Below the pieces are notes generated by a model. The model did not search any database. It was not told the DNA's origin and was given only the letters and a program-made list of their open reading frames with translations. A program made the position numbers and the translations under genes. 64,000 bases of DNA from a bacterium (GTDB lineage: Bacteria; Patescibacteriota; Minisyncoccia; Phycocordibacterales; UBA9973): assembly GCA_037143195.1 (NCBI GenBank), contig JBAWZD010000002.1:72785-136784 (forward strand), given 5' to 3'. This document shows positions 11,060 through 62,897 of this stretch, in pieces (position 1 is the stretch's first letter; every line of letters begins with the position of its first letter).

Positions 11060-11147
11060 GCCGCCGAGGACTGACCGAGCGAGCGGTTTCGGAGTATAGA
11101 GCGTAAACTACAAGCGCATTATTACGCGAGCAAGATTCCGCAGGCAA
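11060..11147 (-). repeat. ~90-bp-family dispersed repeat copy (core TTGCTCGCGTAA...GAAACCGCTCGCTCGGTCAGTCCTCG)
   Basis: Reverse-orientation copy in the nusA upstream intergenic region, flanked by short GTGCGGCG/CGCCGCAC inverted repeats. Confidence 0.65.
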
Positions 11148-11228
11148 GATAAATACACTATTATGGCGCCGCACTTACGTGTTGTTGGTTTTCCACAGTA
11201 GAGTGATTGATATCCACTGTCGCGATAA

Positions 11229-11561
11229 GTGATACAATATATGTCTATGGATGCTCCAACACAGAAAGCAGTTCGTTCGTCGCGTTCAAATGTTACCGCG
11301 TTCCTTTTTATTATCATTGGGCTTGCCATTGTCGCGAGTGTGATTGTGTTTTTGAAGAAGACCACAAACAACAATCAGGCACAGAAAGCTGACCTGCATG
11401 CAGGTATTATCAATCAGATCGCGACAGACTCGACCCAAGGAGACTTGAGTACCAAAGAGAAGACCGATATTTTGAAACAAGTGAGCAAAAATACTCCCGT
11501 GACGAGTGCTCAAGACCGAGCGGCGATACTCGATTCTATTAGTAAGGCTTCAACACAATAA
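11229..11561 (+). CDS. small membrane-anchored protein
   Basis: 110 aa with a single N-terminal TM helix (AFLFIIIGLAIVASVIVFL). It lies directly upstream of the GYAW-repeat protein. Confidence 0.4.
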   Translation: MIQYMSMDAPTQKAVRSSRSNVTAFLFIIIGLAIVASVIVFLKKTTNNNQAQKADLHAGIINQIATDSTQGDLSTKEKTDILKQVSKNTPVTSAQDRAAILDSISKASTQ

Positions 11562-11566
11562 GCACA

Positions 11567-13153
11567 ATGACAACTATCACACAGTGGATCAAACAAAAAA
11601 GTGTCATGCTCGGAGTGGTAGCTTCGATAGCAATCGTCACGCTTTTTTCATACGCCACACTCAATCCTCGTTTGACGCATGCCGCAGCGGGCATGGGTGG
11701 AGACCTTCATGGATACGCATGGAGCTCAACTGTGGGTTGGATGAGCATGAACTGCGCTGAGGGCAGTGCTACTGGAGGCACGGTATGTTCAACTTCAAAC
11801 TACAAAGTCACACTCGACCCTGCGACGCAGATTTTTTCGGGATACGCATGGAGTTCAAACGTTGGATGGGTTTCATTTAATTCGAGCGATGTTTCTTTTT
11901 GTGGCTCGCAAGCAGCACTTTCTGCGGGGAGAATGACTGGCTGGGCTCGTGTGCTGAGCGGTGTATATCCGAATGGAGCAGATGGCTGTATCAGTTTTGG
12001 TTCTGCAACGACGAGCACCTATGGCGTGAATGTAGATTCAGTCGCCGGGACATTTTCTGGCTATGCATGGGGCTCAATTACGCTCGGCTGGCTTGATTTT
12101 AGTCGCGTTACGATGACGCCGACCACTGCGACTGTTGATTTGAAAGTCTTTGACCCATCGACAGGTGTTGCGACAAACGGACCACTCACGGTAGCGCTTG
12201 CTTCAGGTACAGGCACTGCAAAACTTTCGTGGACATCAAGTGGTGTTTCGTCATGTACGGCGAGTGTGACTCCTGCGACGACATCATCTGCGACTGACTG
12301 GCATGGATCAGTCGCAACGACGAGTACTGGCGTTACTGTTGGTTACTCACTCGCATCATCGGCGACTTACACATATACAATTACTTGTACGCCATCAGGA
12401 GGGACACTTTCACCCGTGTCTGATTCAGTACAAGTTGTTGTTTCAGGAAGTAGTACCGGAACATATGTTGATCTCAAAGTGCAGGGAGTGAGTGGCCCAA
12501 CAGACGGTCCAATCACTATGCCAGATTGGACTGGTGGACCAGAAGTATTGCTCTGGACTTCATCGTCTGATGTCACTTCATGTGTGGCTGATTCAAGCCC
12601 TCGTGTTTCAGATTGGAATAGTACAACTGCAATTGGAACATCAAGTGTTTCAACCGCGATTACACTTCCATCAAATATGACGACAGGAATGCTTACTTAC
12701 GTGTATAAGATCGTTTGTTCTGGTAGTACAATTGCAACTGACACTGTACTTATCAATGTGCCACCTGCAGACGTGCCAACATGTGCAGTTCGCCCAGGGC
12801 CATACACAATTGGAACAGGAACACATGTACATTTTGAAGTTCCAATCACGATTGCATGGACACCAAGCTTCAATCCGACAGATTTTTCTCTCGACTTGAG
12901 TAGTGCCTCTGGACTTGCTGTTTCGCTTGTTGATACTGCTACAGGCGCACCGGCAACATCAATCACGGCACGAGGTGGACGTCTCGGACTTTGGATTGAT
13001 GGCGCGATGCCGACTTCAACGAAGACCATCGTGGTGAATGCAAGTCCATCGAGTGCAGGTACGGGAGTGACTTCATGTGATTCCGCAAGCATTGTGATTA
13101 ATCCATCGGGCAGCGGAGGTGTTCGCGGTACGTTCCCATGGCAGGAAAAATAA
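11567..13153 (+). CDS. secreted/anchored surface protein with GYAW-x3-GW repeats and Ig-like Thr/Ser-rich region
   Basis: N-terminal signal-anchor. Three repeats of HGYAWSSTVGWMSMN / SGYAWSSNVGWVSFN / SGYAWGSITLGWLDF occur. The rest is low-complexity and beta-rich. Confidence 0.6.
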   Translation: MTTITQWIKQKSVMLGVVASIAIVTLFSYATLNPRLTHAAAGMGGDLHGYAWSSTVGWMSMNCAEGSATGGTVCSTSNYKVTLDPATQIFSGYAWSSNVGWVSFNSSDVSFCGSQAALSAGRMTGWARVLSGVYPNGADGCISFGSATTSTYGVNVDSVAGTFSGYAWGSITLGWLDFSRVTMTPTTATVDLKVFDPSTGVATNGPLTVALASGTGTAKLSWTSSGVSSCTASVTPATTSSATDWHGSVATTSTGVTVGYSLASSATYTYTITCTPSGGTLSPVSDSVQVVVSGSSTGTYVDLKVQGVSGPTDGPITMPDWTGGPEVLLWTSSSDVTSCVADSSPRVSDWNSTTAIGTSSVSTAITLPSNMTTGMLTYVYKIVCSGSTIATDTVLINVPPADVPTCAVRPGPYTIGTGTHVHFEVPITIAWTPSFNPTDFSLDLSSASGLAVSLVDTATGAPATSITARGGRLGLWIDGAMPTSTKTIVVNASPSSAGTGVTSCDSASIVINPSGSGGVRGTFPWQEK

Positions 13154-13177
13154 TCGTATTACTAACTTATCAATAAT

Positions 13178-14308: not shown

Positions 14309-14418
14309 TCTGATTCTGGTTGTATACAATAAATCAGTGAGCAAAAAATCCGCGTGAGCGGATTTTTTGCTAGGCAGAATTTTTTTTCATTGATATAATG
14401 AATGAGTAAAAAATTCTT

Positions 14419-16170: not shown

Positions 16171-16181
16171 TTTTTACCACA

Positions 16182-17399: not shown

Positions 17400-17411
17400 C
17401 AAACAGAGAGT

Positions 17412-17891: not shown

Positions 17892-17897
17892 GTTTTC

Positions 17898-25231: not shown

Positions 25232-26697
25232 ATGGATATCTGGCTTCCGGTATTGTAGGCTTTGCCACCGGAATTATTTTTGCTTCGCTTGCTCATATGA
25301 CCGCCCCCGCGACTATAGTCGCGGGGGCGGTCGGCGTTTGTCTCCTCGTCCTCGCCACAATCATTCGCAAAGCGAGATCCTACACACTGGTCGCGGGTCT
25401 CTTCATCTGCGCATTTGTCCTCGGCATGTATCGTGCCGAAATTGCAAAACCGAATACGAAAGATTTTGAAAACAACATCGGCGAGAGCGTCACTGTCGAA
25501 GGTCTGATCGCAGATGAACCATCAGTAAAATCATATGGAGCAGGTTTTACCCTCGCGACGCCTGACCTCAGTTTTTCAGTTCGTACCAAAAAGAATACGC
25601 ATCTCGCATACGGTGACAAAGTCCTCGTGTATGGCACACTCGCACTCCCTGAGAATTTCATGACTGATCAAGGCACGGAATTCGATTACATTTCATATCT
25701 CTACAAAAGTAATGTTGTGTATCAAATCAAAAACGCGAACGCGACCGTACTCGAACACAATCATGGCAATTGGATAGTCGCACACTTGATCCCCGTAAAG
25801 AACGCAATCGTAAACTGTTTCCATCGCATCTTGCCCGCGTCACAAGCCGATCTGCTCGCCGGTCTCAATCTCGGCGTCAAAGCAAACATTGATCCGCAAT
25901 TCCGCGACGACCTCGTCACGACTGGCACGATTCATATGATTGCGCTTTCTGGATACAACGTGACCGTCGTTGCAAACGCACTCCAAAGTTTTTTTATCGA
26001 TATTCTCGGACTATCCATGCGTGTCGCGTCAGCAAGTGGCGCACTGTGTATCGTGCTGTTTGTCGTCATGACAGGGATGCAATCATCGGCGGTGCGAGCG
26101 GGGATCATGGCGCTCATCGGACTTTTTGCGCGCACCAAAGGTCGCACCTATGATGCATTTCGTGCGCTTGTCATCGCCGGATTTTTGATGATACTCTACG
26201 ATCCAAAATATCTGGTTTACGATGTGTCGTTTCAACTTTCATACCTCGCTACGCTCGGTATTCTGTTCGTCACCCCAGTGCTCGAGCGAACATTCGCACG
26301 CGTGCCCAAAAAAGTCGCGTACATTATTCTGCTCCGCGAACTCATGTCCGTCACCCTTGGCGCACAGACAGGAGTCTTGCCCTTCATTCTTTACAAAATG
26401 GGCACACTCTCGCTCATTGCACTCCCCGCAAATGTCGCGATATTACCCGCGGTCCCGCTTGCCATGGGATTCGGCGCGCTCGCGGGACTCATCGGCGCAT
26501 TCAGTCTCGGACTCGCATACCCCGCCTCACTTATCACACACTATCTCCTCAGCTATATCACCGGAGCCGTGCAATTCCTCGCGCGCGTCCCGTTCGCGTC
26601 AGTCGTCATAAAACACTTTCCATTATGGCTGTGTATCTGTATGTATTTGTGTCTAATGTTTTTTTTGTATAAAAAATGGCACAGTGAAAAAGTGTAG
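25204..26697 (+). CDS. comEC: DNA internalization channel ComEC/Rec2 (membrane competence domain only, no fused MBL domain)
   Basis: DUF4131-like N-terminal region (FDYISYLYKSNVVYQI) and a competence domain (GTIHMIALSGYNVTVV). Multiple TM helices are present. The 5' end overlaps rnhA, so the true start may be an internal Met. Confidence 0.75.
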   Translation: MEHTRSQTIDGYLASGIVGFATGIIFASLAHMTAPATIVAGAVGVCLLVLATIIRKARSYTLVAGLFICAFVLGMYRAEIAKPNTKDFENNIGESVTVEGLIADEPSVKSYGAGFTLATPDLSFSVRTKKNTHLAYGDKVLVYGTLALPENFMTDQGTEFDYISYLYKSNVVYQIKNANATVLEHNHGNWIVAHLIPVKNAIVNCFHRILPASQADLLAGLNLGVKANIDPQFRDDLVTTGTIHMIALSGYNVTVVANALQSFFIDILGLSMRVASASGALCIVLFVVMTGMQSSAVRAGIMALIGLFARTKGRTYDAFRALVIAGFLMILYDPKYLVYDVSFQLSYLATLGILFVTPVLERTFARVPKKVAYIILLRELMSVTLGAQTGVLPFILYKMGTLSLIALPANVAILPAVPLAMGFGALAGLIGAFSLGLAYPASLITHYLLSYITGAVQFLARVPFASVVIKHFPLWLCICMYLCLMFFLYKKWHSEKV

Positions 26698-26704
26698 CAA
26701 AAAT

Positions 26705-26802
26705 AAAAACCTCTTTTGAAGAAGGCCTTTCGCAGGCGCTTGGCGCCGAGAAGCTCGCGCGCGAGCACGCGCGACGAGTTGCCTTTTCAAAAGAGGTTTT
26801 TA
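26705..26802. repeat. 63-bp-family dispersed repeat copy (26721-26783, reverse orientation) inside 16-bp inverted repeat
   Basis: The core is the exact reverse complement of the copy inside truB (63/63 by eye). Confidence 0.75.
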
Positions 26803-26814
26803 ATTTCGCCCAAA

Positions 26815-30603: not shown

Positions 30604-32718
30604 ATGCGCCCCTCACGTCTTTTCATTCTGATCGCGAGTGTTATCGGATTCCTCATTCCGGTGGCACTTTTTGCTTCCACGGGTGGCATTGATGCGACGA
30701 ATCACACCGCACGATTGTGTTCGAACGAGGATTGTTCCGCCTATTCAATCGTCAATTGGAAACCAACAAACGGTGGGGGAGTTTCAATTACCGATACAAC
30801 ACTTTCTGGATATATTTGGTCAAACAAACTCGGATGGATCAATCTCGCGCCAATAAATGGCGGAGTGCACAACACCTCGAGCGGTACAGTCTCGGGCGAT
30901 GCATGGGGCTCGACCGCGAGTTGGGTGAATTTTCGTCCAACACACGGCGGAGTCACGATCAATCCGTCGACGGGGGAATTTTCTGGCTATGCATGGGTTT
31001 CCGGTGGCGGCTGGATGCTGTTTGATTGTTCCAAAGCCGATGCTTGTGTGAAGACTGATTGGCGTCCAACTGTTGTGGTGACGACGCACACCACTCCACC
31101 TCCTCCGCTCATTTGTCTCGACCGCACAGCGCTCAATTATGGAGGATCGCTTCCGTGTGTGTACCCGACACTGTGTACTGATACAACTGCGACCAATTAT
31201 GGTTCCGTTGGAATGTGTACGTACGCATTATTGTGTCAGGATCGAACGGCAACAAATTTCGGCGGGTCATTACCGTGTACGTATACGCTGACGTGTACTG
31301 ACACAACGGCGACGAATTACGGTTCTACCGGTAGCTGCACCTACGCGCTATTGTGTCGAGACCGCACCGCTACCAACTATGGCGGAGCATTGCCATGTTC
31401 CTATGCGACGACTTGTACCGATACTGCAGCGACCAACTACGGCGCGACGGGTGCGTGTACGTATGCGCCACCACCACTATGTCTTGATACAACTGCGACG
31501 AACTACCTCGGTTCATTTCCATGTGTATACGCAAGCACAATCTGTACTGATCCATCAGCTAGCAATTTCCGACAATCTGGCACCTGTGTGTATCCAACAA
31601 TAGTTCACACTGAAACGACCGGAGGGGGAGGCGGTTGTCCAATTTCTACCGCGACTGACATTGTCGGAGAAGTTATCGGCCAAGTAAAAAATAGTTACTG
31701 TAATACGACGCAGACTGTCGGCACGACATACAAAAAAGTAAAAGCGATTCTTGGTACGAGCACTGCCACAAAAGCTGAAGCTGTTGCTGCGACCGTGGGA
31801 GTTGTTGCAAGTGCTGCAACATCAATTTTCACCGCGCTCTTTTTGAATCCACTTTCATTCTCCGAAATCTTCCTGATCCCTGCTCGCTTGTGGTCGCTTC
31901 TCCTCGCTGCGCTCGGACTCAAAAAACGTCACCAGCCATGGGGCACGGTCTATGACAGTATCACCAAACAACCACTTGATCCTGCATATGTGACACTCCG
32001 TACTATTGAAGGAGAAGACGTCGTTTCCAATTTGACCGACCTCGATGGACGATTCGGATTCGTGGTGCCAAAGCCAGGTGTGTATTCAATCTTCGCGCAG
32101 AAGACGAACTATCTTTTCCCATCACAGCAACTCGTCGGACGTGACCACGACGAGCTCTACCGAGATTTGTATTTCGGCGAACACTTTACTGTTGAGAATG
32201 CGGGAGATGTCGTCATCAAAAATATTCCGATGGATCCAATGCATTTCGATTGGAATGAATTCGCGAAGAATCAACAGAACCTCATGAAGTTCTATTCGAA
32301 GCGTGACAAGATTTTGCGTCGCGTGTCCGACGTCCTTTTTGGCGCAGGATTTGCAATTGCGATTCTTGCGACAGTATTTGCCCCAAAACTATACAATATT
32401 ATTGTCCTCGTTTTGTATGTCGGACTCTTCTTCCTCCGTCAATATGGCAAACATTCACGACCATACGGAGATATCACCGATGCGAAAACCGGTTTGCCAC
32501 TTTCATTTGCGCTCATTCGCATCGCGTCGCTTTCAACTGGCGTTGAGGTCATGCACCGCATTGCCGATGCGCAAGGCCGATATTACGCACTTCTCCCAAA
32601 TGCCGACTACAAAGTCCGCATCGATCGCAAACTGCCCGACGGCACCTATCAAACCGCAGTCACTGACCTACCCGCAACCGTCAAGAAAGGCTATCTCTCG
32701 AGTAAATTCAAGGTGTAG
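30604..32718 (+). CDS. large surface/membrane protein with GYAW repeats, eight 20-aa two-Cys tandem repeats, and a C-terminal TM domain
   Basis: N-terminal anchor. Three repeats of LSGYIWSNKLGWINL / VSGDAWGSTASWVNF / FSGYAWVSGGGWMLF. Eight copies of xC(T/Q/R)DxTATNYGxxxxC(T/V)Yxx. A Gly5 linker and about four C-terminal TM helices. The stop codon lies inside a 42-bp perfect inverted repeat. Confidence 0.65.
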   Translation: MRPSRLFILIASVIGFLIPVALFASTGGIDATNHTARLCSNEDCSAYSIVNWKPTNGGGVSITDTTLSGYIWSNKLGWINLAPINGGVHNTSSGTVSGDAWGSTASWVNFRPTHGGVTINPSTGEFSGYAWVSGGGWMLFDCSKADACVKTDWRPTVVVTTHTTPPPPLICLDRTALNYGGSLPCVYPTLCTDTTATNYGSVGMCTYALLCQDRTATNFGGSLPCTYTLTCTDTTATNYGSTGSCTYALLCRDRTATNYGGALPCSYATTCTDTAATNYGATGACTYAPPPLCLDTTATNYLGSFPCVYASTICTDPSASNFRQSGTCVYPTIVHTETTGGGGGCPISTATDIVGEVIGQVKNSYCNTTQTVGTTYKKVKAILGTSTATKAEAVAATVGVVASAATSIFTALFLNPLSFSEIFLIPARLWSLLLAALGLKKRHQPWGTVYDSITKQPLDPAYVTLRTIEGEDVVSNLTDLDGRFGFVVPKPGVYSIFAQKTNYLFPSQQLVGRDHDELYRDLYFGEHFTVENAGDVVIKNIPMDPMHFDWNEFAKNQQNLMKFYSKRDKILRRVSDVLFGAGFAIAILATVFAPKLYNIIVLVLYVGLFFLRQYGKHSRPYGDITDAKTGLPLSFALIRIASLSTGVEVMHRIADAQGRYYALLPNADYKVRIDRKLPDGTYQTAVTDLPATVKKGYLSSKFKV

Positions 32719-32856
32719 CACAGAAAAGTGCAAAAAGGTGCTCTCGGAAGCACCAGCGTAAAATCCTGCTGGATTTTCGCCTCACGCTCGCGCCGTCGCG
32801 CTCCGCGAGTGCTTCCGAGAGCACCTTTTTGCACTTTTCTGTGCTACACCTTGCTT
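32715..32856. repeat. 42-bp perfect inverted repeat with ~58-nt structured loop, overlapping stop codon of surface-protein gene
   Basis: The arm GGTGTAGCACAGAAAAGTGCAAAAAGGTGCTCTCGGAAGCAC pairs with its exact reverse complement. The loop contains a CGCTCGCG motif and an inner small hairpin. Confidence 0.7.
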
Positions 32857-32957
32857 TTTTTCGAGACTCTATGTATAGTACTGACCTAAGCGAGTGCTCC
32901 TAGATATTGTTCGAGTTGCTTCTGGGTGTTACCTTGGCTTTTTATTTTAATTACTAC

Positions 32958-36177: not shown

Positions 36178-36204
36178 GGTAAGACGACAAACGAATGAAA
36201 GAAG

Positions 36205-36240
36205 CAAAAGGCGCGCCCTTCGGGCGCGCCTTTTGTATAC
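36205..36240. terminator. bidirectional GC-hairpin terminator (copy 1 of identical pair)
   Basis: CAAAAGGCGCGCCCTTCGGGCGCGCCTTTTGTAT lies after fusA. Confidence 0.6.
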
Positions 36241-36388: not shown

Positions 36389-37210
36389 GTGTGTTTTTGT
36401 CCTGTTACGTTGTTCGCGCAAGTATTATTTGGTGGTGATACTGGTTTTCGTGTCATATTATCCAATCTTACAACTACATCAGTAACAGTAACTATTCCCC
36501 CAGTTACAGGAAAAGTAGAGAAGGACGCGGTGTTTCATTTAAGAGATGCAACTGATAATAAAAATTGGGTCGGTGGGGATACATGGGCAGACCCAGTCGG
36601 TGGTTTCGATTTCGTTCCCTGCTGTACTGTAAAAATTGCGAACGGAACGATAACAAAAACGTTCACCTTGAAGCCCCAACATATTTATAACATTGATGCG
36701 ATGGTAAATTTTGAAAGCGATTTTCAGGACACCGATGCGATAGAATTTAATACAGGCTGCCCAGACTTGCCGGCCGGTCAACAGCGAGTCTCAGGTTCAT
36801 CATGTGACGACCCGAAACTTTCACCACCGGGAACAGTAAAGTCCTCTGGCTCGTCTGGATCTAACGATACAGGAAGTAACTCAACCTCAGGAGGTACTCA
36901 AAATGGAAATACGCTCGATGTAAAAGCATCAGGATTAAATCTCAAATTGAGTCTTGATAATCCAGTTGGTGATATCAAAACGATACCGGATTTTGTTGAG
37001 AAATGCCTAACCGCGGTGATGCTCCTGCTTTCGCCAATTATTGTGATAATGATACTTTATTCTGGATTCCTTTTTGTTACAGCACAGGGAAACTCAGAAA
37101 AGTTACAGACCGCAAAAAGTACGATTTTATACGCACTCATTGGCGCCGCTATCATTATTGGAGCGAAAGGATTTTCAACGGTAGTCGCGTCATTTTTTAG
37201 TCATTCGTAA
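36389..37210 (+). CDS. secreted protein with C-terminal double-TM segment (TrbC/VirB2 pilin-like tail), unknown function
   Basis: N-terminal hydrophobic signal. The C-terminus AVMLLLSPIIVIMILYSGFLFVTAQG...ILYALIGAAIIIGAKGF has two TM helices. The gene is bracketed by identical hairpins at about 36205-36240 and about 37223-37258. Confidence 0.5.
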   Translation: MCFCPVTLFAQVLFGGDTGFRVILSNLTTTSVTVTIPPVTGKVEKDAVFHLRDATDNKNWVGGDTWADPVGGFDFVPCCTVKIANGTITKTFTLKPQHIYNIDAMVNFESDFQDTDAIEFNTGCPDLPAGQQRVSGSSCDDPKLSPPGTVKSSGSSGSNDTGSNSTSGGTQNGNTLDVKASGLNLKLSLDNPVGDIKTIPDFVEKCLTAVMLLLSPIIVIMILYSGFLFVTAQGNSEKLQTAKSTILYALIGAAIIIGAKGFSTVVASFFSHS

Positions 37211-37222: not shown

Positions 37223-37258
37223 ATATTTAGCAAAAGGCGCGCCCGAAGGGCGCGCCTT
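37223..37258. terminator. bidirectional GC-hairpin terminator (copy 2, loop inverted relative to copy 1)
   Basis: CAAAAGGCGCGCCCGAAGGGCGCGCCTTTTGTAT. The stem is identical to that of the hairpin at 36205-36240 and the loop is its reverse complement. Confidence 0.6.
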
Positions 37259-37364
37259 TTGTATTTCTCAACAATTCCTTTGCATAAACTTGATACCCAT
37301 TTTGGTAGTCTTTCTATAGCAAATTGTTCGTTGACAGCACTATAGCAATATTGATATATTTACT

Positions 37365-48493: not shown

Positions 48494-49072
48494 ATGCAAA
48501 AGCGCAACATCATCACCATCTGTGGCATGCTTGGTTCGGGCAAATCGACCGCTGCCAAGCGTGTAGCTACCGCACTCGGGTATCCGCACTACTCGGCAGG
48601 GGATTTCATGCGCGCGATGGCGAGCGAACGCGGACTGACGATCATTGAACTCAATTTGCTTGCGGAGAATGACCCTGCCGTTGACCGTGAGATTGATGCC
48701 AAGCAAAAGGCTTTTATGGATACCAACAACAATTTCGTGATTGATTCACGTATTGGATGGTTCTTCGCACAGGACTCATTCAAAGTATTTTTGAACCTCG
48801 ATTTGGATACGGCGAGTGCTCGCGTGTTTGGTGATATTCAAGCCAAGAAATCTGAACGCAAAGAGGAAATGTCTGAGACACTTGAGGCTGTGAAGACACG
48901 ACTCTCTGAACGACTCGCGAGTGAGAAAGAACGCTACAACAAATATTATGCGATTGAAAACTATCAAGACCCGAGTCATTTTGATTTGGTGATTGATACC
49001 AAAACGAACGATATCCCAACGGTTGAGCGAATGATTCTCGACGCATATACGGCGTGGCAAGCGAAGGTATAA
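48494..49072 (+). CDS. cmk: cytidylate kinase-like P-loop NMP kinase
   Basis: ITICGMLGSGKST P-loop, a Cmk-like layout, and a Lys-rich C-terminus. Confidence 0.55.
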   Translation: MQKRNIITICGMLGSGKSTAAKRVATALGYPHYSAGDFMRAMASERGLTIIELNLLAENDPAVDREIDAKQKAFMDTNNNFVIDSRIGWFFAQDSFKVFLNLDLDTASARVFGDIQAKKSERKEEMSETLEAVKTRLSERLASEKERYNKYYAIENYQDPSHFDLVIDTKTNDIPTVERMILDAYTAWQAKV

Positions 49073-49875
49073 AAAACGTATATCGGGTATACAAAGAGTG
49101 GGGAGAGACCCCGCTTGTTTGTTTGGAACGACTCCGTGCGAGAGAAGGAATAGATGCGAATGTGCCAATGACGTATGCTGGCCGACTTGATCCGGCCGCA
49201 GAAGGTGAACTTATCATCCTTGTGGGTGATGAATGCAAAAACAAGGATGCGTATAGCGGGCTCTCAAAAACATACGTTGCTGAAATTCTATTTGGTGTAT
49301 CAACTGACACGTATGATTTACTTGGTCTCCCAAAATTAAGTGAAGCACTCAGCAAATCTTCTTTCAAAAAGGCAACTCGTCGCGCGTGCTCGCGCGCGAG
49401 CTTCTCGGCGCCAAGCGCCTGCGAAAGGCCTTCTTTGAAAGAAGATTTGCTGAGTGCTTACCTTGATTCTCGAATTGGCAAACAAATGCAGATGTATCCA
49501 GCATATTCGTCAAAGACGGTCGGTGGAGTGCAGTTACATGCACACGCGCGGGCGGGGAAGGACGTTGATTTGCCTATACATGAGGTGGAACTCATTGCTT
49601 ACGCCGACCTCACGGTCGGCTTGCGTACTCGAGCCGAAGTAATTGATCGAGTCCGCGATCTCACGAGTATTGTCAAAGGTGATTTTCGTCAGACCGAAAT
49701 TCTTGAATCGTGGACGAGTCTTGTAACTGAATTGCCCGAGGAACTACTTGCCGTGAAAGTACACCTTACTGTTTCAAGCGGATTTTATATACGCCAATTT
49801 GCTCATGACATCGGGGAAGTTTTTGGTGCTGACACTTGTTTGTATTCGCTCGTGCGAAATCACATTGAGCAGTAG
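49054..49875 (+). CDS. truB: TruB-family pseudouridine synthase carrying an in-frame 63-bp repeat insertion
   Basis: YAGRLDPAAEGELIILVGD is the catalytic Asp motif. KTYVAEILFGVSTDTYD and MYPAYSSK are also present. The GTG start overlaps the cmk stop. A 63-bp dispersed-repeat core at 49371-49433 is inserted in-frame. Confidence 0.7.
   Translation: MASEGIKNVYRVYKEWGETPLVCLERLRAREGIDANVPMTYAGRLDPAAEGELIILVGDECKNKDAYSGLSKTYVAEILFGVSTDTYDLLGLPKLSEALSKSSFKKATRRACSRASFSAPSACERPSLKEDLLSAYLDSRIGKQMQMYPAYSSKTVGGVQLHAHARAGKDVDLPIHEVELIAYADLTVGLRTRAEVIDRVRDLTSIVKGDFRQTEILESWTSLVTELPEELLAVKVHLTVSSGFYIRQFAHDIGEVFGADTCLYSLVRNHIEQ
49351..49452. repeat. 63-bp-family dispersed repeat copy (49371-49433) flanked by 18-bp perfect inverted repeat, located in-frame inside truB
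   Basis: GGCAACTCGTCGCGCGTGCTCGCGCGCGAGCTTCTCGGCGCCAAGCGCCTGCGAAAGGCCTTC, with flanks AGCAAATCTTCTTTCAAA and TTTGAAAGAAGATTTGCT. Confidence 0.75.
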
Positions 49876-54377: not shown

Positions 54378-54386
54378 TATCGTATC

Positions 54387-54503
54387 CGCCGTGCGCATGC
54401 ACGCATAAAAAAAGGCTACCCCATAAAATTCTGTTGAATTTTTGGGCCCGCTCAGGCCGTCGCCTTCCGCGAGGCCTTTTTTTATGCGTGCATGCGCATG
54501 GCG
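54387..54503. repeat. ~30-bp near-perfect inverted repeat with ~57-nt loop downstream of secY
   Basis: CGCCGTGCGCATGCACGCATAAAAAAAGGC pairs with GCCTTTTTTTATGCGTGCATGCGCATGGCG with one mismatch. Confidence 0.6.
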
Positions 54504-54629
54504 TTCCGAATCTGGCGTAGACTTCTCACAGGACTTTATCCACATTTTTTTAATTGTTGCTGATTGTCGTTTCCACTGTAGTTTGATTATAAGTCTAATA
54601 ATAGGCGCAATCTTTAAAAATAAATAATA

Positions 54630-55436
54630 ATGAGCAATCCAAAAAACATTACTAACTACACACAAGTAGTAGAATTACTGAGACCTAAGCCCGAGTGCTG
54701 GACTCCAGACATGATGTACTCTCTCTTTGGTGAAAAACCCGACGCAGACATTCAAGATGTCAAACTTTCGTTTGAAAGATTAGAATACCTCTATTCAAAC
54801 CGGATAAGTCTGATTACATTTGTAAATAGACCAGCGCTGGAGTTAATTCAAAAAGTGAACAACAGATTCAGGAATGGGGAACTAATAATACCAAACCACC
54901 CAGATTTTGACCCGAAGTGTCTTACTGCTATTGAAAAATATCCGACACAAGGACCCTGCCTTATTAGCATAGGTTGTATCCCGAAAAGTAAAGAGAAGAA
55001 TTACTGGAAACAAACACTTGTGCTAGCAGATTATGTTGAAGAATTTTTGCCTGAAATTACAAGTACGCTTTTCTGGAAAGAAGCTCGGCTTGAATTAGTC
55101 AATTTGAGTTCCAATATTGGTTCGTTGTTAGAGGAAAAAGAACCAGGTATTGCTTTGGGTCGACTTAAAGAACTTAAAATTAATCAACATTTTAGGCCAA
55201 GTGCTTCTGAAACACTGCAGCAGATTATCGCATGCGATTATTTGTCTGGTAAAAAGCTGTTCTCCGGTGACTCAACACTGACTTCTGATTTTTTGGCAAT
55301 GGGCGATGTTTCTCCGGTATCTATGCACATGTTCGGCGATTGTTTGGGTATGCTCTCCGCACGAGTTAACAATTACCATGTAGAAATCGGATGTTCATTC
55401 AAGTGTAATTTAGGTTGGTTGGCCATGTTGCAATAA
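54630..55436 (+). CDS. hypothetical protein (low-GC, accessory)
   Basis: 268-aa ORF that is AT-rich relative to its neighbours and has no recognisable motif. Confidence 0.4.
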   Translation: MSNPKNITNYTQVVELLRPKPECWTPDMMYSLFGEKPDADIQDVKLSFERLEYLYSNRISLITFVNRPALELIQKVNNRFRNGELIIPNHPDFDPKCLTAIEKYPTQGPCLISIGCIPKSKEKNYWKQTLVLADYVEEFLPEITSTLFWKEARLELVNLSSNIGSLLEEKEPGIALGRLKELKINQHFRPSASETLQQIIACDYLSGKKLFSGDSTLTSDFLAMGDVSPVSMHMFGDCLGMLSARVNNYHVEIGCSFKCNLGWLAMLQ

Positions 55437-55613
55437 TCAATCAACGGTAAGGAATAATTTGACTTTTTGCGTAGCTTTGCTAGCATCAATTCCGTGGTGT
55501 CCGTCGCTGGAAACAATTGACACCAAACAATAAAGGTCCCAGGTACAATTTGCCTGGGACTTATTTTTTTTATAAGACATTGACAATGTATATACATTGA
55601 GTATACAATCGAA

Positions 55614-55883
55614 TTGATGAATACAGTAATCAATATACGAACGGACAAGAAGGTTCGTGATGAGGCTTCGAGGATTTTTGAGCGCATGGGTCTGACTTTG
55701 TCCGCTGGCATGAATATGTTTTTGCGTCAGGTCATTCAAGAAAAAGGTTTACCGTTTCAGCCGACGCTTGATCCTGAAAAAATTGCCGAAAAATGGAAGA
55801 GGGAAGCGGAATGGGCACTCAAACATGGCAAGGGATATACTTCAACAAAAGAAATGTTTGATGATATTATGGTAGGGAGATAG
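55614..55883 (+). CDS. dinJ: type II antitoxin, RelB/DinJ family
   Basis: INIRTDKKVRDEASRIFERMGLTLSAGMNMFLRQVIQEKGLPF is a DinJ-like RHH fold. Confidence 0.65.
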   Translation: MMNTVINIRTDKKVRDEASRIFERMGLTLSAGMNMFLRQVIQEKGLPFQPTLDPEKIAEKWKREAEWALKHGKGYTSTKEMFDDIMVGR

Positions 55884-55886
55884 CAC

Positions 55887-56165
55887 ATGTACATTCGGTA
55901 TTACACAAAACACTTTCAAAAATCAGTTCAAAAGGTCATTCGTTCGGGCAAGATTAGCCGAACGGAGATAGAAAGCGTGGTTGATTTGATAGCCCAAGGA
56001 GAGCCACTTCCATTGAAGTATCAAGATCATCAGTTGAAAGGAATTTTTCGAGAATATCGAGAATGTCATATAAGAGGAGATCTTCTTTTGGTATATCAAA
56101 TCCAAAATAAGAATCTTATTCTCCTCTTAATCGATATCGGCTCCCACTCGTATCTTGGCGTTTGA
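55887..56165 (+). CDS. yafQ: type II toxin, YafQ/RelE family
   Basis: ...YQDHQLKGIFREYRECHIRGDLLLVYQIQNKNLILLLIDIGSHS is a YafQ-type signature. The gene starts 4 nt after the antitoxin stop. Confidence 0.65.
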   Translation: MYIRYYTKHFQKSVQKVIRSGKISRTEIESVVDLIAQGEPLPLKYQDHQLKGIFREYRECHIRGDLLLVYQIQNKNLILLLIDIGSHSYLGV

Positions 56166-56184
56166 TATGGTATATTCGAGCCAT

Positions 56185-56775: not shown

Positions 56776-56778
56776 TCT

Positions 56779-57465
56779 ATGGAAAATATTTCTTGGACAG
56801 TCATTTCACTTGGAGGGTCACTCATTTGTCCTGACCGTGTTGATGGCGATTATGTAAGTGCGATTAGTACGCTCATTCGTACTCGCGCCCAAAAAGGGGA
56901 GCGCTTCGCAATCATTACGGGTGGCGGCAAATTGTGTCGCGAATATCAGGACGCCCTTCGTAAAGCGCACACTCCTTCGAACGACGAACTCGATTGGCTC
57001 GGAATATACACGACTCGTTACAATGCAGAATTGTTGCGACTCGCGATTGGAGACGTGGTAGAACCCGCAATATATCTTGACCCACGTGAGCTCTCGCTCA
57101 CTGGCCGCTCAGTACTCGTGGGTGGTGGATATGAACCTGGTCACTCAAGTGATGGTGCTGCGGTAACGCTCGCAAAATCGCTCGGTGCAAAAAAGGTCAT
57201 CAATCTTTCAAACATTGATTACGTCTACACCGCAGATCCACGCAAGGATGCGACAGCAACTCCGATCAAAACATCGTCATGGGATGATTTTCGCAAACTT
57301 TTGCCTGAGACATGGGACCCTGGTTTCAACGCTCCGTTTGATCCTATCGCTGCCAAAATGGCACAAGAGCTTGGACTTGAAGTTGCGGTCATGAACGGCA
57401 AGAATTTGGAAAATCTTTCAGCATATCTCGACGGCAAAGAATTTGTAGGAACAGTCATTCGATAA
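56779..57465 (+). CDS. pyrH: UMP kinase-like amino-acid-kinase-family protein
   Basis: VISLGGSLI...IITGGG...VLVGGGYEPGHSSD is AAK-fold and UMP-kinase-like. Confidence 0.55.
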   Translation: MENISWTVISLGGSLICPDRVDGDYVSAISTLIRTRAQKGERFAIITGGGKLCREYQDALRKAHTPSNDELDWLGIYTTRYNAELLRLAIGDVVEPAIYLDPRELSLTGRSVLVGGGYEPGHSSDGAAVTLAKSLGAKKVINLSNIDYVYTADPRKDATATPIKTSSWDDFRKLLPETWDPGFNAPFDPIAAKMAQELGLEVAVMNGKNLENLSAYLDGKEFVGTVIR

Positions 57466-57468
57466 TAT

Positions 57469-58242
57469 ATGGCAATCATCATCAAAACACCGAAAGAAAT
57501 TGAAATCATTCGAGAAGGGGGACGACGTCTCGCGCAGGTGCTTGCTGATACGGCAAAGCAAGTGCGCCCAGGGATTTCGGCGACTGAGCTTGATGCGTTT
57601 GCACAAAATGAAATCAAAAAGCTTGGTGATACACCAGCATTTTTGGGTTACAAGCCAGTCGGTCATCGTAAGGCATATCCAGCCGCACTCTGTGTTTCGG
57701 TGAACGCAGAAGTGGTGCACGGAATTCCGAAGGATACGACTATCTTGAAGGAAGGTGATGTTGTGTCGCTTGACCTTGGGCTCAACCACAAAGGACTTTT
57801 CACTGACCACGCTGTGACCGTTGGGGTCGGAGCACTCACCAAAGAAAAACAGAAACTGCTCGCAGTCACAGAACAATCAATGTACGAAGGAATCGAGGCG
57901 ATCAAGCCAGGTGCACGTGTCGGAGATATCGGATTCGCTGTTTCTTCCTATGCAAAGAAGAATGGGAAATATGGTCTCATCAAAGTGCTCGCTGGTCATG
58001 GAGTTGGCAAAGCAATTCACGAAGACCCGTATATCCCAAACTACGGAAAGGCCCACACGGGTGATCCACTTGTACCAGGTATGATTATCGCAATCGAGCC
58101 AATGCTCACACTCGGCACGGAACATGTCGACGAGACAGGGGACGGCTACACACTCAAAACTATCGACGGATCAACCGCCGCACATTTTGAGCATACAGTA
58201 CTTGTTACCGAAACAGGGTACGAAATACTCACTCTTGTGTAA
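57469..58242 (+). CDS. map: methionine aminopeptidase type I
   Basis: Pita-bread fold with metal ligands (D...D...H...E...E). Confidence 0.9.
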   Translation: MAIIIKTPKEIEIIREGGRRLAQVLADTAKQVRPGISATELDAFAQNEIKKLGDTPAFLGYKPVGHRKAYPAALCVSVNAEVVHGIPKDTTILKEGDVVSLDLGLNHKGLFTDHAVTVGVGALTKEKQKLLAVTEQSMYEGIEAIKPGARVGDIGFAVSSYAKKNGKYGLIKVLAGHGVGKAIHEDPYIPNYGKAHTGDPLVPGMIIAIEPMLTLGTEHVDETGDGYTLKTIDGSTAAHFEHTVLVTETGYEILTLV

Positions 58243-58252
58243 AAAATAGAGC

Positions 58253-58401
58253 CTCCGTACGGAATAAAAATACGCCCTTTGGCTTGTCTGCGAAATCTTG
58301 CTCGCGTAACAAATTTTAGGAGTTCATATTCTTTGCTTTGAAACCGCTCGCTCGGTCAGTCCTCGACTGCGCCAAAGGGGTATTTTTACTCCGTACGGAG
58401 G
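58253..58401 (+). repeat. ~90-bp-family repeat copy (58283-58373) inside ~32-bp inverted repeat
   Basis: Arms CCTCCGTACGGAATAAAAATACGCCCTTTGGC and GCCAAAGGGGTATTTTTACTCCGTACGGAGG. The core is CTTGTCTGCGAAATCTTGCTCGCGTAAC...GAAACCGCTCGCTCGGTCAGTCCTCGACTGCGCC. Confidence 0.7.
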
Positions 58402-58433
58402 GGCGTATTTTGCGCCAGCCGACAAGGTAAAAT

Positions 58434-58871
58434 TTATGCCTCCTCGATGATTTCGCGGTAGGTTATGGGTTCTTCAAAAATTTCAGTGGGAGTGTAGCGA
58501 CGGACATAGAGTTCGCTGTCTTGATTCTTGCCTGAGCCTTTCGATTTGAGTGTTATTTCTGTCGCGAGACCTGTGGTGCGGTCGATGAGATTGGCCGCCT
58601 CAAGAATCGCGGCGACTTTGGAGTGTTTGTTTTCTTTGCGATATTTTTCAGCTTGTTCGAAGAGGTATTCAAGCGCTGTTACCGTTGAGATATCTTTAAA
58701 AACCTCGGCAATCTTTTTTGCATTATGTGTTTCGATATGGAGATTCGCCAAATGTTTGGCGTTTTTTTCTGCCATTTTCTTCCACTCATGATCACCGATG
58801 GTCTTCTTCATACCTCTATTGTCGTATGTTCCGTGAAATAAATCAATCTCTGGGCTATAATAGGGGAACAT
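58434..58871 (-). CDS. hypothetical protein
   Basis: 145-aa ORF divergent from the large ATPase gene. Confidence 0.4.
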   Translation of the reverse strand: MFPYYSPEIDLFHGTYDNRGMKKTIGDHEWKKMAEKNAKHLANLHIETHNAKKIAEVFKDISTVTALEYLFEQAEKYRKENKHSKVAAILEAANLIDRTTGLATEITLKSKGSGKNQDSELYVRRYTPTEIFEEPITYREIIEEA

Positions 58872-61607: not shown

Positions 61608-61646
61608 TTCGATGTGTTGCTCCAAATGTATGGGGGCATGTCTCTT

Positions 61647-61739
61647 GTCTTGTCTGTGAAATCTCGCTCGCGTAATAAATTGTGATGGTTTGTATTCTCT
61701 GCCTCGAAACCGCTCGCTCGGTCAGTCCTCGACTGCGCC
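61647..61739 (+). repeat. ~90-bp-family repeat copy
   Basis: CTTGTCTGTGAAATCTCGCTCGCGTAAT...GAAACCGCTCGCTCGGTCAGTCCTCGACTGCGCC. The variable middle differs from the other copies. Confidence 0.7.
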
Positions 61740-61877
61740 AATGGGCATAATGCCGAATAGAATTTGCAGCAACTTTTGACTTACGATTCGAGCAAATCGA
61801 GCAAAGCAATAGTAATTGACTTTTTTGAAAAAAATGGTAAATTAAAATTATAGTTTCACCTTAAAATAATAAATAGA

Positions 61878-62666
61878 ATGAACAATCTGATTCGTGAGAA
61901 ACTTTTTAGAGTTCAGGAGAACGAAAATAAGATTCACTTTATACTTGCAAATACAAGTATATCTGAAGGGACGCTGGTAAAGGGGGCCGTAGTAGCGCGG
62001 AAAAATCCATACCATAATTATGGGCACGCACTCGGTGCCACAGAGTATGCGATAAAATTAGCGATAGCAGAAGGACTTACTCCTCAAGAAATCAATATTC
62101 TTGGGCTTTCGATGATTTTCCATGATGCTGGTCACAGAGGGCGAGTACACTTGTATGACGAAATGCGAGCAGTTCAACTCGCTGACGAAATACTCGATTT
62201 AAGCGACACGCAATGTGTTCATGGTTATACCAGAGAAAGTGTTACGCAAAATATGCGTAACTTAATACTGGATACGATGTTCCCAGACGCACGTGGCCAA
62301 AAATTGAATCCACTCGCTCGCATTGTACAGGACGCTGACTTGGCTCATCTTGGTCAAGGCCCTGAGTATTGGGTATGGGCCTCAATGGGCCTTATTGAGG
62401 AATTCAATCTCAATAGACTTCATCCGCTAACGCCACAGGATTTTATTGTTGATGAACAGGAAAAGTTTGTAAATTTTTTAGCAAAACTTTCTGGAAGTGG
62501 TGATGTTTATTTGTCGGCCGGTGCAAAGAAAATTTTTCGTAACCCACTCGAAGATGTACTCGCTGTAAAAAAATACAGTTTACAAGCGATTGAGTACGCT
62601 TACAATGTTCGTTATGAAGACGTAACGCTCGACGAATTCAAAAAACAGCTCCTGCAGTTCGCATAA
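61878..62666 (+). CDS. HD-domain phosphohydrolase
   Basis: H..GH...HD..H...D metal ligands (YHNYGHALG; IFHDAGHRG; DADLAHLG). Low GC. Confidence 0.55.
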   Translation: MNNLIREKLFRVQENENKIHFILANTSISEGTLVKGAVVARKNPYHNYGHALGATEYAIKLAIAEGLTPQEINILGLSMIFHDAGHRGRVHLYDEMRAVQLADEILDLSDTQCVHGYTRESVTQNMRNLILDTMFPDARGQKLNPLARIVQDADLAHLGQGPEYWVWASMGLIEEFNLNRLHPLTPQDFIVDEQEKFVNFLAKLSGSGDVYLSAGAKKIFRNPLEDVLAVKKYSLQAIEYAYNVRYEDVTLDEFKKQLLQFA

Positions 62667-62770
62667 AGTGTAATCTGTAGCTTAAAAATTAAGCGGTCAA
62701 AATATGGCCGCTTTTTTTGCGCAAAAATATAGCTCTATTTTAGAGCTAAAGTTGGCACTTCGAAAGTGAG

Positions 62771-62897
62771 CGCGGGCGGATATCTCCTCGGTGCAGTCGA
62801 GGACTGACCGAGCGAGCGGTTTCGAAGCAGAGAATATAAAGTACTAAAATCTATTACGCGAGCAAGATTCCGCAGACAAGCCGAGGAGATATCCGCC
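62771..62897 (-). repeat. ~90-bp-family repeat copy (62792-62880) inside 17-20-bp inverted repeat
   Basis: Arms GCGGGCGGATATCTCCTCGG and CCGAGGAGATATCCGCC. The core is in reverse orientation. Confidence 0.7.

Follow-up and report, generated by a model that had tools for sequence, protein, structure and literature searches.

Known Kinds of Small Repeats and Inverted Sites in Bacterial Genomes

Several kinds of short repeats and recombination sites in bacteria combine a small size with inverted symmetry. MITEs are usually recognised by conserved ends that enclose a variable middle, the terminal inverted repeats being their conserved part. Rickettsia palindromic elements (RPE), which occur in a reduced genome, are selfish palindromic repeats that can sit in frame within genes and are conserved over their full length. 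The dif and pdif sites measure ~28–31 bp and consist of two ~11-bp inverted arms around a 6–8-bp centre. Integron attC sites are imperfect palindromes of the R''/L''-L'/R' type with RYYYAAC and GTTRRRY boxes, and they lie in one orientation downstream of their cassettes, with intI nearby. In invertons, conserved inverted repeats flank a promoter and are recognised by an invertase that is encoded nearby.

REPs are palindromes of 20–40 bp in which the palindrome itself is repeated in high copy number, with a GTAG or CGTC tag at one end (PMC3733652). For REPs and REPINs, roles in transcription termination or mRNA stabilisation have been suggested (PMC3733652), and one report documents REP palindromes as insertion targets of IS elements (PMC1525189). 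Three further reports describe template switching between inverted repeats, by which arms are homogenised and expanded and the spacer is inverted (PMC8604942, PMC13100816, PMC8794818).

The Conserved Core of Family B

The window, that is, the whole 64-kb stretch of DNA that was analysed, contains four copies of a dispersed repeat that is called family B here. The preliminary description had located these copies, and all four were confirmed, with refined borders (Table 1). Family B is a real, low-copy, lineage-restricted and non-coding DNA repeat, whose core of ~92 nt is asymmetric and has no conserved ORF. The core begins with CTTGTCTGCG... and finishes with ...GACTGCGCC, and these ends are not complementary to each other.

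Table 1. Family-B features and the associated gene module in the window
Feature	Position	Strand	Remarks
Core c1	11057-11148	(-)	between divergent promoters of nusA and ORF 11229-11561
Core c2	58283-58373	(+)	between convergent map (57469-58242) and ORF145 (58434-58871, minus strand)
Core c3	61649-61739	(+)	41 nt past VirD4-like stop codon; 5' block outward; left end of HD module
Core c4	62790-62880	(-)	5' block outward; right end of HD module; upstream of ndk (62975-63445)
Invariant 24-nt run AACCGCTCGCTCGGTCAGTCCTCG	58342-58365; 11065-11088; 61708-61731; 62798-62821	(+); (-); (+); (-)	one per window copy
Palindromic unit of c1	11034-11174		arms 11034-11056 / 11149-11174; ~23 bp with one bulge and one mismatch; DNA fold z = -2.5
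Palindromic unit of c2	58249-58404		inner arms ATAAAAATACGCCCTTTGG / CCAAAGGGGTATTTTTA, common to orthologous copy in sister MAG
Palindromic unit of c4	62764-62908		arms 62764-62791 / 62881-62908; fold z = -3.8 and -4.4
Inserted HD module	61608-62905	(+)	unit c3, promoter-like site, HD-domain gene 61878-62666, intrinsic terminator 62691-62713, unit c4

The 26-mer GAAACCGCTCGCTCGGTCAGTCCTCG occurs exactly four times in the window and never in 100 shuffles, and the 5' block is found four times at ≤2 mismatches, where none is expected. The pattern of conserved ends around a variable centre was borne out: a middle of ~30 nt varies between a 5' and a 3' block. When eight copies are aligned, variable columns make up 8 of 52 in the blocks and 28 of 32 in the middle (Fisher p=5e-11), and pairwise identity amounts to 86–100% in the blocks and 47–86% in the middle. 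The 24-nt run is identical in all eight full copies, which come from three species. The most diverged copy is c1; its middle is ~50% identical to that of the other copies, its core carries a 1-nt indel, and the last 9 nt of the core are replaced by a copy of arm sequence.

Other readings of the core were rejected. As judged by eye, every reading frame either has stops or is not conserved, which speaks against a peptide. Promoter matches within the core reach at best 9/12, are not conserved across copies and point in directions unrelated to the neighbouring genes. Homology to the sister families A and C was also rejected as unsupported, with local alignment z-scores of at most 3.6 and mostly below 2. 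The motif GCTCGCG, reported earlier as common to two repeat families, is indeed present in both but is uninformative, since 20 of its 32 occurrences in the window lie outside the repeats. It is enriched relative to dinucleotide shuffles and strand-biased; a maximal-order Markov model gives no over-representation, and the motif was dismissed as a shared functional or Chi-like word.

A fifth copy was found in the source genome, for which the count covers the 64-kb window and ~15 kb more, and a sister MAG and a third species have two copies each. All nine are intergenic. An exact 20-mer search of the whole sister MAG gave two matches. Exact and gapped patterns of family B had no match in JGI metagenomes, and its patterns had none in IMG/VR viral contigs. 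Species-representative genomes yielded one MAG, together with three chance matches unrelated to the element, two of them in a near-identical coding context.

The analysed DNA belongs to a metagenome-assembled genome. Short-read contigs that share its sample are interrupted within the repeats (L006, L018, L045), and for L049, a related contig, a loop of the assembly through the repeat is possible. Nevertheless, it is extremely improbable that family B is an assembly artefact or a chance similarity: the same units with the same arms recur in independent assemblies (contigs from Logan, one MAG each from NCBI and ENA, and ENA GROS21 scaffolds from several samples), and the motif counts lie far above shuffle expectation.

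Copy-Specific Palindromic Arms

The copies had been described as nested in palindromes, which holds for c1, c2, c4 and every copy in relatives, and weakly for c3. In all but c3, left flanks pair with their own right flanks at local scores of 18–29, as against 5–9 for non-partner flanks, and DNA folding gives z = -2.5 to -4.4. The c2 unit has an additional outer layer with the self-complementary 10-nt TCCGTACGGA at each side, and the inner arm of c4 includes a 17-bp perfect part, GGCGGATATCTCCTCGG. The palindrome of c3 has decayed; pairing is left only in GTTGCTCCAAAT / ATTTGCAGCAAC, the own-flank score is 11 and the fold z is +1.3. Family-B arms reach 20–35 nt, and the longest, in a sister family, measure 58–63 nt. 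The arms are not copies of other loci, as their matches in ~450 kb of related sequence are limited to the own partner or the orthologue. Nor do they behave like spacers that match viruses: two arms had no match, and one 17-mer had 26 in a few unrelated phage contexts, none of which extends past the 17-mer.

Several other core families share this architecture in every related locus examined. Units of the sister families A and C are inserted in frame in truB, with a net length gain of about one core length and with one arm encoding the ancestral linker. In another relative (L007), an arm includes the last codons of the neighbouring ORF, and elsewhere a 36-nt terminator has been duplicated with its 3-nt loop flipped. 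The in-frame position of families A and C recalls RPE; no family-B copy, however, lies in coding sequence, and RPE copies are conserved along their whole length, unlike those of family B.

The window is also rich in "empty" perfect palindromes at gene ends, whose arms of 14–26 nt are similar to those of family B. The inner arms of the c2 unit and of its orthologue in the sister MAG (L004) have the form of A-tract / GC stem ... GC stem / T-tract. A terminator scanner called no family-B unit, and the units of c1, c4 and the xer site lack such arms.

Family B could be a non-autonomous transposable element of the MITE or PATE kind, whose two end blocks would be recognised by a transposase encoded elsewhere; insertion would then favour the loops of hairpin or terminator palindromes, and the arms would be the target rather than a product. 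Like MITEs, the copies are small, non-coding, multi-copy, intergenic, foldable, better conserved at the ends than in the middle and tied to gene gain. Under such a reading the many empty palindromes of matching arm length are possible targets, several arms resemble bidirectional terminators, and insertion of IS elements into REP palindromes has been reported (PMC1525189). Moreover, the cores of the two copies in the third species are identical and their inner arms partly similar, as a recent copy event would lead one to expect. However, the inverted repeats of family B are its variable part, differing in each non-orthologous copy, and its conserved core lacks terminal inverted repeats and a conserved flanking tetranucleotide. 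No consistent direct repeat that could be a target-site duplication flanks the core or the whole unit, the 10-nt sequence around c2 being restricted to that copy. A scan of 30 window ORFs revealed no transposase or integrase, and the window and ~250 kb of related loci yielded neither a cognate autonomous IS nor a transposase with matching ends. Copies are very few, as the 20-mer search of the sister MAG indicates, the copies are stable at orthologous sites across species, and the arms in truB, L004 and L007 come from the host flank rather than from a pre-existing palindrome. Such a transposon is distinctly unlikely.

With REPs and REPINs, family B and its sister families share extragenic positions, the formation of hairpins and a preference for gene ends with occasional placement inside genes. 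Family B differs in that its core is not palindromic and has no terminal tag, there are ~5 copies per genome and RAYT is not nearby; no RAYT (Y1 transposase) gene was found in the window or the related loci. As to its kind, the best reading of the sequence is that family B would be a MITE/REP-like DNA repeat, with variable arms and a conserved core, unlike the described MITEs and REPs.

Inversion at Orthologous Sites

At the c2 site, between map and ORF145, the sister MAG also has a family-B copy. Its flanks align to the window in minus orientation, and its core and inner arms align in plus, so that the core is flipped relative to its surroundings. The left arm of the L004 copy is orthologous to a flank that is unpaired in the window (the minus match extends to L004 2133 / window 58401), and its map-side arm is an inverted copy of that single-copy flank. 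The outer arms are thus younger than the inner ones.

The core is flipped at a second orthologous site, between rpsO and xer. Its 3' end is directed toward xer in the window genome (L045) and the third species (L046), and its 5' end in L002. A copy lies 60–110 nt upstream of xer in all three species. The outgroup (L051), whose rpsO–xer spacer is 69 nt long, has no family-B unit there, which marks the unit as a gain specific to the lineage. At this site L002 and L046 have homologous arms, with common outer flanks and the motif CAGGTAT/ATACCTG; otherwise, they have strongly diverged, each still being complementary to its own partner.

The strand of the copies relative to the neighbouring genes is inconsistent, and it is reversed between species at orthologous sites. 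The copies c2 and c3 follow immediately after genes, on the sense strand. Copy c1 and the xer-site copy lie between divergent promoters of housekeeping genes, which does not fit the earlier view that the copies cluster around accessory genes.

A Small Gene Module Between Two Inverted Copies

Three of the four window copies bracket a block with the VirD4-like gene and the HD-domain gene; this is geometrically correct, and the block had been interpreted as an accessory island with the copies at its boundaries. The interpretation holds for the HD segment. The three nearest comparable relatives (L007, L008 and L009-L014) lack positions 61608-62905, and in them TTTGTAAA and the ndk promoter come immediately after the VirD4-like stop codon. 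Both ends of the segment coincide within a few bases with the inverted units c3 and c4. The HD protein has 23 detectable homologues in unrelated contexts, and its homologues were rejected as carriers of the repeat, as the loci of those with 63% and 56% identity have no family-B copy.

The VirD4-like part of the 58.4-62.7-kb block, on the other hand, is conserved. This protein of 911 aa (DUF8128 and TrwB-like) shows 65–88% full-length identity to >100 cluster representatives, of which the named ones are labelled Patescibacteria/Paceibacterota. The order map/secY, small ORF, VirD4-like gene and ndk is kept in 8/8 related loci, and because of this synteny the VirD4-like gene belongs to the core genome and is not accessory. 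Family B is a repeat of the selfish-DNA kind that brackets one small inserted gene, and not the border of a large accessory island.

A small gene module between two inverted copies of one site, together with a copy next to xer, resembles pdif modules. One proposal is that family B is a DNA site which a host protein recognises sequence-specifically. The housekeeping Xer-type tyrosine recombinase, for instance, could use it for recombination or as an architectural site, and inverted pairs of such sites would delimit exchangeable gene modules by analogy to pdif. The invariance of the blocks across species, the copy upstream of xer in three species and its absence from the outgroup, and the HD module between two inverted units with the same block outward on both sides are in line with this proposal. 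Yet neither block has the dif-like architecture, and the sole internal inverted repeats are of 4–5 bp (ACCG-N6-CGGT and CAGTC-N3-GACTG). Family B is three times as long as dif. The linkage to xer amounts to one site inherited from one ancestor, and the other copies have no recombinase nearby. A dif-like site in the arms of c1 or in the core was rejected, as the resemblance to the Firmicute dif covers 9 nt. A host-protein site of the proposed type is quite improbable.

Unlike attC sites, the arm ends of family B have no conserved boxes, c3 and c4 are inverted, and there is no integrase in the window. In contrast to invertons, its inverted repeats are not conserved between copies and no invertase is adjacent, the housekeeping xer standing beside one copy only. 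The promoter-like matches are weak (9/12) and inconsistent. Inversion between species was observed.

Structured RNA as an Alternative

The preliminary description had offered a small structured RNA as an alternative. In such an RNA, the long variable stem would close a conserved apical domain, and the transcript might be an sRNA, a stabiliser or terminator loop of the 3' UTR, or a hairpin that RNase III processes. The arms are wholly different among copies and still paired, and folding energies of the units reach -50 to -90 kcal/mol. Three single-side substitutions in a small 5' hairpin keep the pairing, on the core strand only; c2 and c3 lie on the sense strand directly 3' of genes. In the sister family C, compensatory changes strongly support two small hairpins (15/18 pairs), on the basis of which the class to which family B belongs may be selected as a structured single strand.

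For family B itself, the alternative found no support from Rfam, core covariation or strand consistency. Rfam 15 gave no match at the gathering threshold across the 64 kb, and at E<=10 over two family-B units the best hits were plant miRNA precursors, with 17 bits against a gathering score of 44. Double-sided changes were seen in 0/15 predicted core pairs on the core strand and in 0/14 on the reverse strand, where it should be considered that the blocks vary little; the centroid fold leaves the core largely unstructured. The orientation to flanking genes is inconsistent and reversed between orthologous copies, c1 and the xer-site copy lie between divergent promoters, and G-U-type asymmetry is almost absent from the arms. 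Template switching, moreover, yields the same "covariation" without selection on RNA. Two short resemblances were also rejected: the spacing of a reverse-strand CUGAxxGA...CGAA string that recalls a hammerhead is wrong as judged by eye, and an SRP-like GGUCAG.UCC string gets no support from the SRP model. A structured RNA is thus improbable as an explanation of family B.

Proposed Template Switching Around a Dispersed Spacer

The explanation that we prefer, and to which we give about an even chance, is that family B is a MITE/REP-like repeat kept as a spacer between inverted repeats, which template switching builds, homogenises and flips. The core would persist as the spacer of long inverted repeats within a small clade of Patescibacteria (Paceibacteria-like). 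The arms are not a conserved part of the repeat; replication template switching from one arm to the other would both create them on the spot and preserve their complementarity. Such switching would homogenise the arms, lengthen them outward by overwriting the host flank with an inverted copy of the opposite flank, and now and then invert the spacer. New copies would be rare and would arise when the core and a few inner-arm bases are copied into another hairpin-prone intergenic site, probably by an ectopic template switch or by recombination rather than by a dedicated transposase. The dispersed copies could then serve as portable homology and as boundaries at which small segments such as the HD-gene module are gained. 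In favour of this explanation are the arms that match their own partner alone, the empty palindromes, the flips at two orthologous sites and the truB, L007 and terminator cases, which display the same process in sister families.

Like family B, the inverted repeats in the cited template-switch reports have arms that stay complementary while drifting and expand over the host sequence, with the spacer occurring both ways. As far as these reports describe them, they are unique short inverted repeats with arbitrary spacers, whereas family B has a conserved and dispersed spacer of ~92 nt between arms of 20–35 nt. A clean empty site flanked by identical sequence was not encountered for family B, and its mobility is therefore deduced from its distribution. 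One feature argues against a purely neutral or selfish spacer and is left unexplained by it: the two blocks are near-invariant across three species, while the middle and the arms diverge by 30–50%. This invariance points to a sequence-specific constraint, whether by a protein, an RNA partner or a requirement of propagation, in which the 24-nt run may have a function.

Significance for the Genomes of Patescibacteria

Genomes of the Candidate Phyla Radiation measure ~1 Mb, and mobile elements that can be recognised in them are few; loss is considered the main mode of their evolution. The present locus shows small-scale gain (the HD gene), inversion of a spacer and quick remodelling of intergenic hairpins, and even of a coding linker of truB, around short conserved cores. 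A bolder view, unlikely though tenable, is that Paceibacteria-type genomes carry an undescribed "hairpin-cap" class of elements, in which the 24-nt block would be a putative site for a host factor that drives exchange. The core families A, B, C and D may each seed a long palindrome from the surrounding host sequence, even where it is coding, and such elements may change orientation, exchange places between sites and form the limits of small gene modules without a transposase. The candidate host factor may be the single Xer recombinase, whose gene one conserved copy adjoins. If true, gene cassettes in ultra-small genomes would turn over by a new route that depends on replication or on a recombinase.

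Should neither template switching nor a recognition site prove right, family B would be an ordinary lineage-specific repeat. If the invariant block is a recognition site of a protein or an RNA, it would provide a handle on function in organisms that cannot be cultured. If template switching is the cause, family B would be a natural multi-locus example of the birth, growth and flipping of palindromes around a dispersed seed, and it would account for the breaking of assemblies of such genomes at these sites.

Conserved Core of the Family-B Repeat

Family B is a non-coding repeat of ~92 nt. In its core, a conserved 5' block and a conserved 3' block enclose a middle of ~30 nt, and the core together with the inverted-repeat arms on either side of it forms a unit. 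Inspection of the window sequence located all four copies (c1 to c4) where the preliminary description had placed them. The 26-mer GAAACCGCTCGCTCGGTCAGTCCTCG from the 3' block has exactly four matches in the window, compared with none in 100 shuffles, and the 5' block has four matches when up to two mismatches are allowed. The view that the ends are conserved and the middle is variable was also borne out. Across eight full copies, including those from relatives, 8 of the 52 block columns vary, compared with 28 of the 32 middle columns (Fisher p = 5e-11). A 24-nt run, AACCGCTCGCTCGGTCAGTCCTCG, is invariant in all eight, and pairwise identity is 86–100% in the blocks and 47–86% in the middle. 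Between c2 and its orthologue in the sister MAG (L004), the 5' and 3' blocks are 96% and 100% identical, respectively, and the flanking genes are 83–88% identical. Because the blocks are conserved far above the middle, the arms, and even the adjoining coding DNA, their conservation is a sign of sequence-specific constraint and speaks against a purely selfish spacer.

The core matches no Rfam family and contains neither a conserved ORF nor a dif-like architecture. A partner for the conserved blocks was sought in the window, where neither strand occurs a second time. The alternative of a small structured RNA was checked by searching the core for covariation, and none was found.

The repeat was then considered beyond the window. 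A 20-mer from the invariant block, compared with 185,579 species-representative genomes, identified a single MAG, CAITQP010000009.1, that holds two true copies (L002 and L004). Three further matches are due to chance and unrelated to family B, two of them lying in near-identical coding context. Two scans of JGI metagenomes and one search of IMG/VR gave zero family-B matches. Three more copies were reached through the gene adjoining the L002 copy: two in a third species (L046) and one in the window genome's own sample (L045), whose contig begins within the 3' block, 77 nt upstream of xer. There are thus at least five copies in the source genome and two in each of the two relatives. Given this census, family B is real but confined to a narrow clade.

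Coordinates of the repeats, genes, and other elements (L002 and L004, sister MAG; L045, own sample; L046, third species; L007 and L008, relatives)
Feature	Locus	Position	Strand	Remarks
Family-B core c1	window	11057-11148	-
Family-B core c2	window	58283-58373	+
Family-B core c3	window	61649-61739	+
Family-B core c4	window	62790-62880	-
Family-B copies	L046	8721-8812; 9830-9920
Hybrid family-B unit	L049	1028-1121
xer gene	L002	6763-7731
xer gene	L045	111-1061
xer gene	L046	10001-10951
Insertion	window	about 61608-62905		Unit c3, promoter-like site, HD gene, intrinsic terminator (62691-62713), unit c4
Family-A units	window	7458-7560; 8655-8773; 26697-26809
Family-A unit in truB	window	49334-49468		Inside ORF 49054-49875; 135 nt = 45 codons, in frame; splits TruB_N domain
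Family-C unit	window	32696-32866		Arms 58-63 nt, overlapping last codons of ORF 30604-32718
Family-C unit	window	54387-54503
Family-C unit	L004	6879-7019
Family-C units	L007	221-342; 9469-9601
Family-C unit	L008	9846-9965
secY-adk interval	window	54378-56141		268-aa ORF
secY-adk interval	L007	5410-6607		RelB/YafQ toxin-antitoxin pair
secY-adk interval	L008	7265-7317		Nothing
secY-adk interval	L004	4376-7032
36-nt terminator palindromes	window	36203-36238; 37229-37264
T4SS-pilin-like gene	window	36389-37210
Promoter-hairpin element	window	10948-11025	-	Upstream of nusA
Paralogous genes	window	91-1788; 1803-3533		Function unknown
60-nt periodic repeat	window	31154-31505

Arms and Orientation of the Core

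The copies had been described as nested in palindromes. This is correct in that the left flank of each copy has its complement in the right flank of that copy alone, and weak in the case of c3. Own-partner flanks give local scores of 26, 18, 18, 29, and 21, against 5–9 for off-diagonal pairs; the orthologous pair c2/L004 scores 11–12. The exception, c3, has an own-flank score of 11 and no gain in folding stability (z = +1.3). The folding z values are -3.8/-4.4 for unit c4 and -2.5 for unit c1.

Orthologous sites show that the core can be inverted relative to its surroundings. L004 is syntenic with 53.4–60.5 kb of the window at 83–94% nucleotide identity. Between map and ORF145, a small minus-strand ORF, the flanks of the two align in the minus orientation and the core with its inner arms in the plus orientation. 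The inner arms, ATAAAAATACGCCCTTTGG and CCAAAGGGGTATTTTTA, travel with the core, including their one-base asymmetry, and the outer arms differ. The left arm of L004 is orthologous to an unpaired flank of the window, with the minus-oriented match reaching L004 2133 and window 58401, and this same stretch recurs, inverted, as the map-side arm of L004. At the rpsO-xer site, the 3' end of the core points toward xer in L045 and L046 and the 5' end does so in L002. The arms of L002 and L046 have the outer flanks and a CAGGTAT/ATACCTG motif in common; the remainder is largely different, with each arm still pairing with its partner. In the more distant outgroup L051 (Xer 87% identical), the rpsO-xer spacer is 69 nt long and holds no unit. 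The unit lies 60–110 nt upstream of the gene of a housekeeping Xer-type tyrosine recombinase in three species, and this retention is a lead, not evidence. On a related contig (L049), NYN-rpsO is tandemly duplicated. Compared with the two L046 copies, the junction is a hybrid unit that takes its left arm from one copy and its right arm from the other. Unequal crossover within the core would produce such a junction, and so would an assembly path that loops through the repeat.

The HD-Gene Insertion

Among the genes of the window are ribosomal-protein operons, secY, adk, map, ndk, nusA, and genes for EF-G, ComEC, RecJ, and type IV pilus proteins. For three of the window proteins, the nearest homologues that bear a source name are labelled Patescibacteria, Paceibacterota, or Nomurabacteria, and these labels suggest the taxon. 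The repeats had been proposed to bound an accessory island at 58.4–62.7 kb that includes the VirD4-like ATPase. Over its whole length, this protein (911 aa, DUF8128 and a TrwB-like P-loop) shares 65–88% identity with more than 100 cluster representatives. The order secY/map, small minus-strand ORF, VirD4-like gene, ndk is common to the relatives L007, L008, and L009–L014, where ndk follows the VirD4-like stop codon within 40–70 nt. On sequence comparison, the VirD4-like gene is a core gene of the clade and not an accessory one.

The additional window DNA, delimited by junction alignment with these relatives, is a 1.3-kb module with a single gene, the HD gene. At either end it stops only a few bases from the outer edge of a unit, c3 on one side and c4 on the other; the two units are mutually inverted with the 5' block outward at both sides. 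The HD protein has just 23 detectable homologues, the closest 63% identical, and the homologue loci examined have unrelated contexts and no family-B copies. The boundary idea therefore holds for this module, absent from the relatives, and not for the larger block.

Related Palindromic Units

A palindrome scan of all loci revealed one common plan throughout this clade: long, site-specific, near-perfect arms (15–58 nt) around an asymmetric centre from one of a few families, A (65–69 nt, four window copies), B, C, and D. Many "empty" palindromes with arms of 14–26 nt also lie at gene ends in the window. Among close relatives, a given intergenic site can be occupied by centres and arms that differ, or by a simple terminator, even beside 94%-identical coding sequence. 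Family A differs from family B in having inner inverted repeats that are short and conserved (TTTGAA-AAGGC ... GCCTT-C-TTCAAA). Contigs assembled from short reads of the same sample (L018) end within a family-A unit.

The in-frame family-A unit in truB resembles Rickettsia palindromic elements. At the same point of this variable linker, the closest relative (L007) has an in-frame family-C unit, and no unit is present in two other relatives. The net gain in length is approximately that of the core alone, and the ancestral "...EDLL...YL..." sequence, also present in relatives without a unit, is encoded in one of the arms. In L007, the map-side arm includes the final codons of the adjacent ORF in inverted form. 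Together, these two cases show where arms come from.

The centre of family C (45–70 nt) contains an AU-rich hairpin with a YUGYUR loop and a GC hairpin with an invariant CCGTCG. Since 15 of the 18 predicted pairs in these two small hairpins show compensatory changes among six members, the repeat class may have a structured single-strand function.

Several other features of the window were recorded. The secY-adk interval, whose genes differ in each relative, starts with a palindromic unit and for this reason has the appearance of a local gene-turnover hotspot. Downstream of fusA, the T4SS-pilin-like gene is flanked by the same 36-nt terminator palindrome, the two copies being identical except for a flipped 3-nt loop (TTC vs GAA), and appears to be a second small gene set between duplicated hairpins. 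The 7-mer GCTCGCG occurs 32 times in the window against 9.5 expected from dinucleotide shuffles, with a 16:4 strand bias outside repeats; it is not enriched against a maximal-order Markov model. Upstream of nusA, a near-consensus promoter (TTGACA-17-TAATAT) is followed after ~30 nt by a terminator-like hairpin and T-run, and this element could represent a leader, an attenuator, or a very small transcript. Two adjacent paralogous genes have identical 28-nt starts, and a 704-aa CarboxypepD_reg-like ORF contains a 60-nt periodic repeat.

Proposed Origin and Relation to Known Repeats

Template switching between inverted repeats is described as a source of arm homogenisation, arm expansion over neighbours, and spacer inversion (PMC8604942, PMC13100816, PMC8794818). 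Switching of this kind by DNA polymerase would account for every arm feature without selection on RNA, so family B can be read as a DNA repeat that would persist as the spacer of template-switched inverted repeats. The cores of the two third-species copies are identical and their inner arms partly alike, which suggests that the piece copied during spread is the core with about 15–20 nt of arm. Apart from the housekeeping xer, neither the window nor the related loci were found to contain a transposase, RAYT, or integrase.

In its behaviour, family B comes closest to a palindromic repeat of the MITE/REP type that also follows the dynamics of template-switch palindromes. It belongs to neither class. 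Unlike MITEs, it lacks both conserved TIRs and a target-site duplication; unlike REP/REPIN elements, it has a non-palindromic conserved part, no GTAG/CGTC tag, and a low copy number (PMC3733652). Nor is it an attC site, an inverton, or a dif site. The observation of the repeat is confirmed, and its earlier interpretation is partly supported. The unusual feature is that the usual rule is inverted: the centre is conserved and the arms are free. Family B would gain in interest if the invariant block turned out to act as a recognition site driving the exchange of modules in these reduced genomes.
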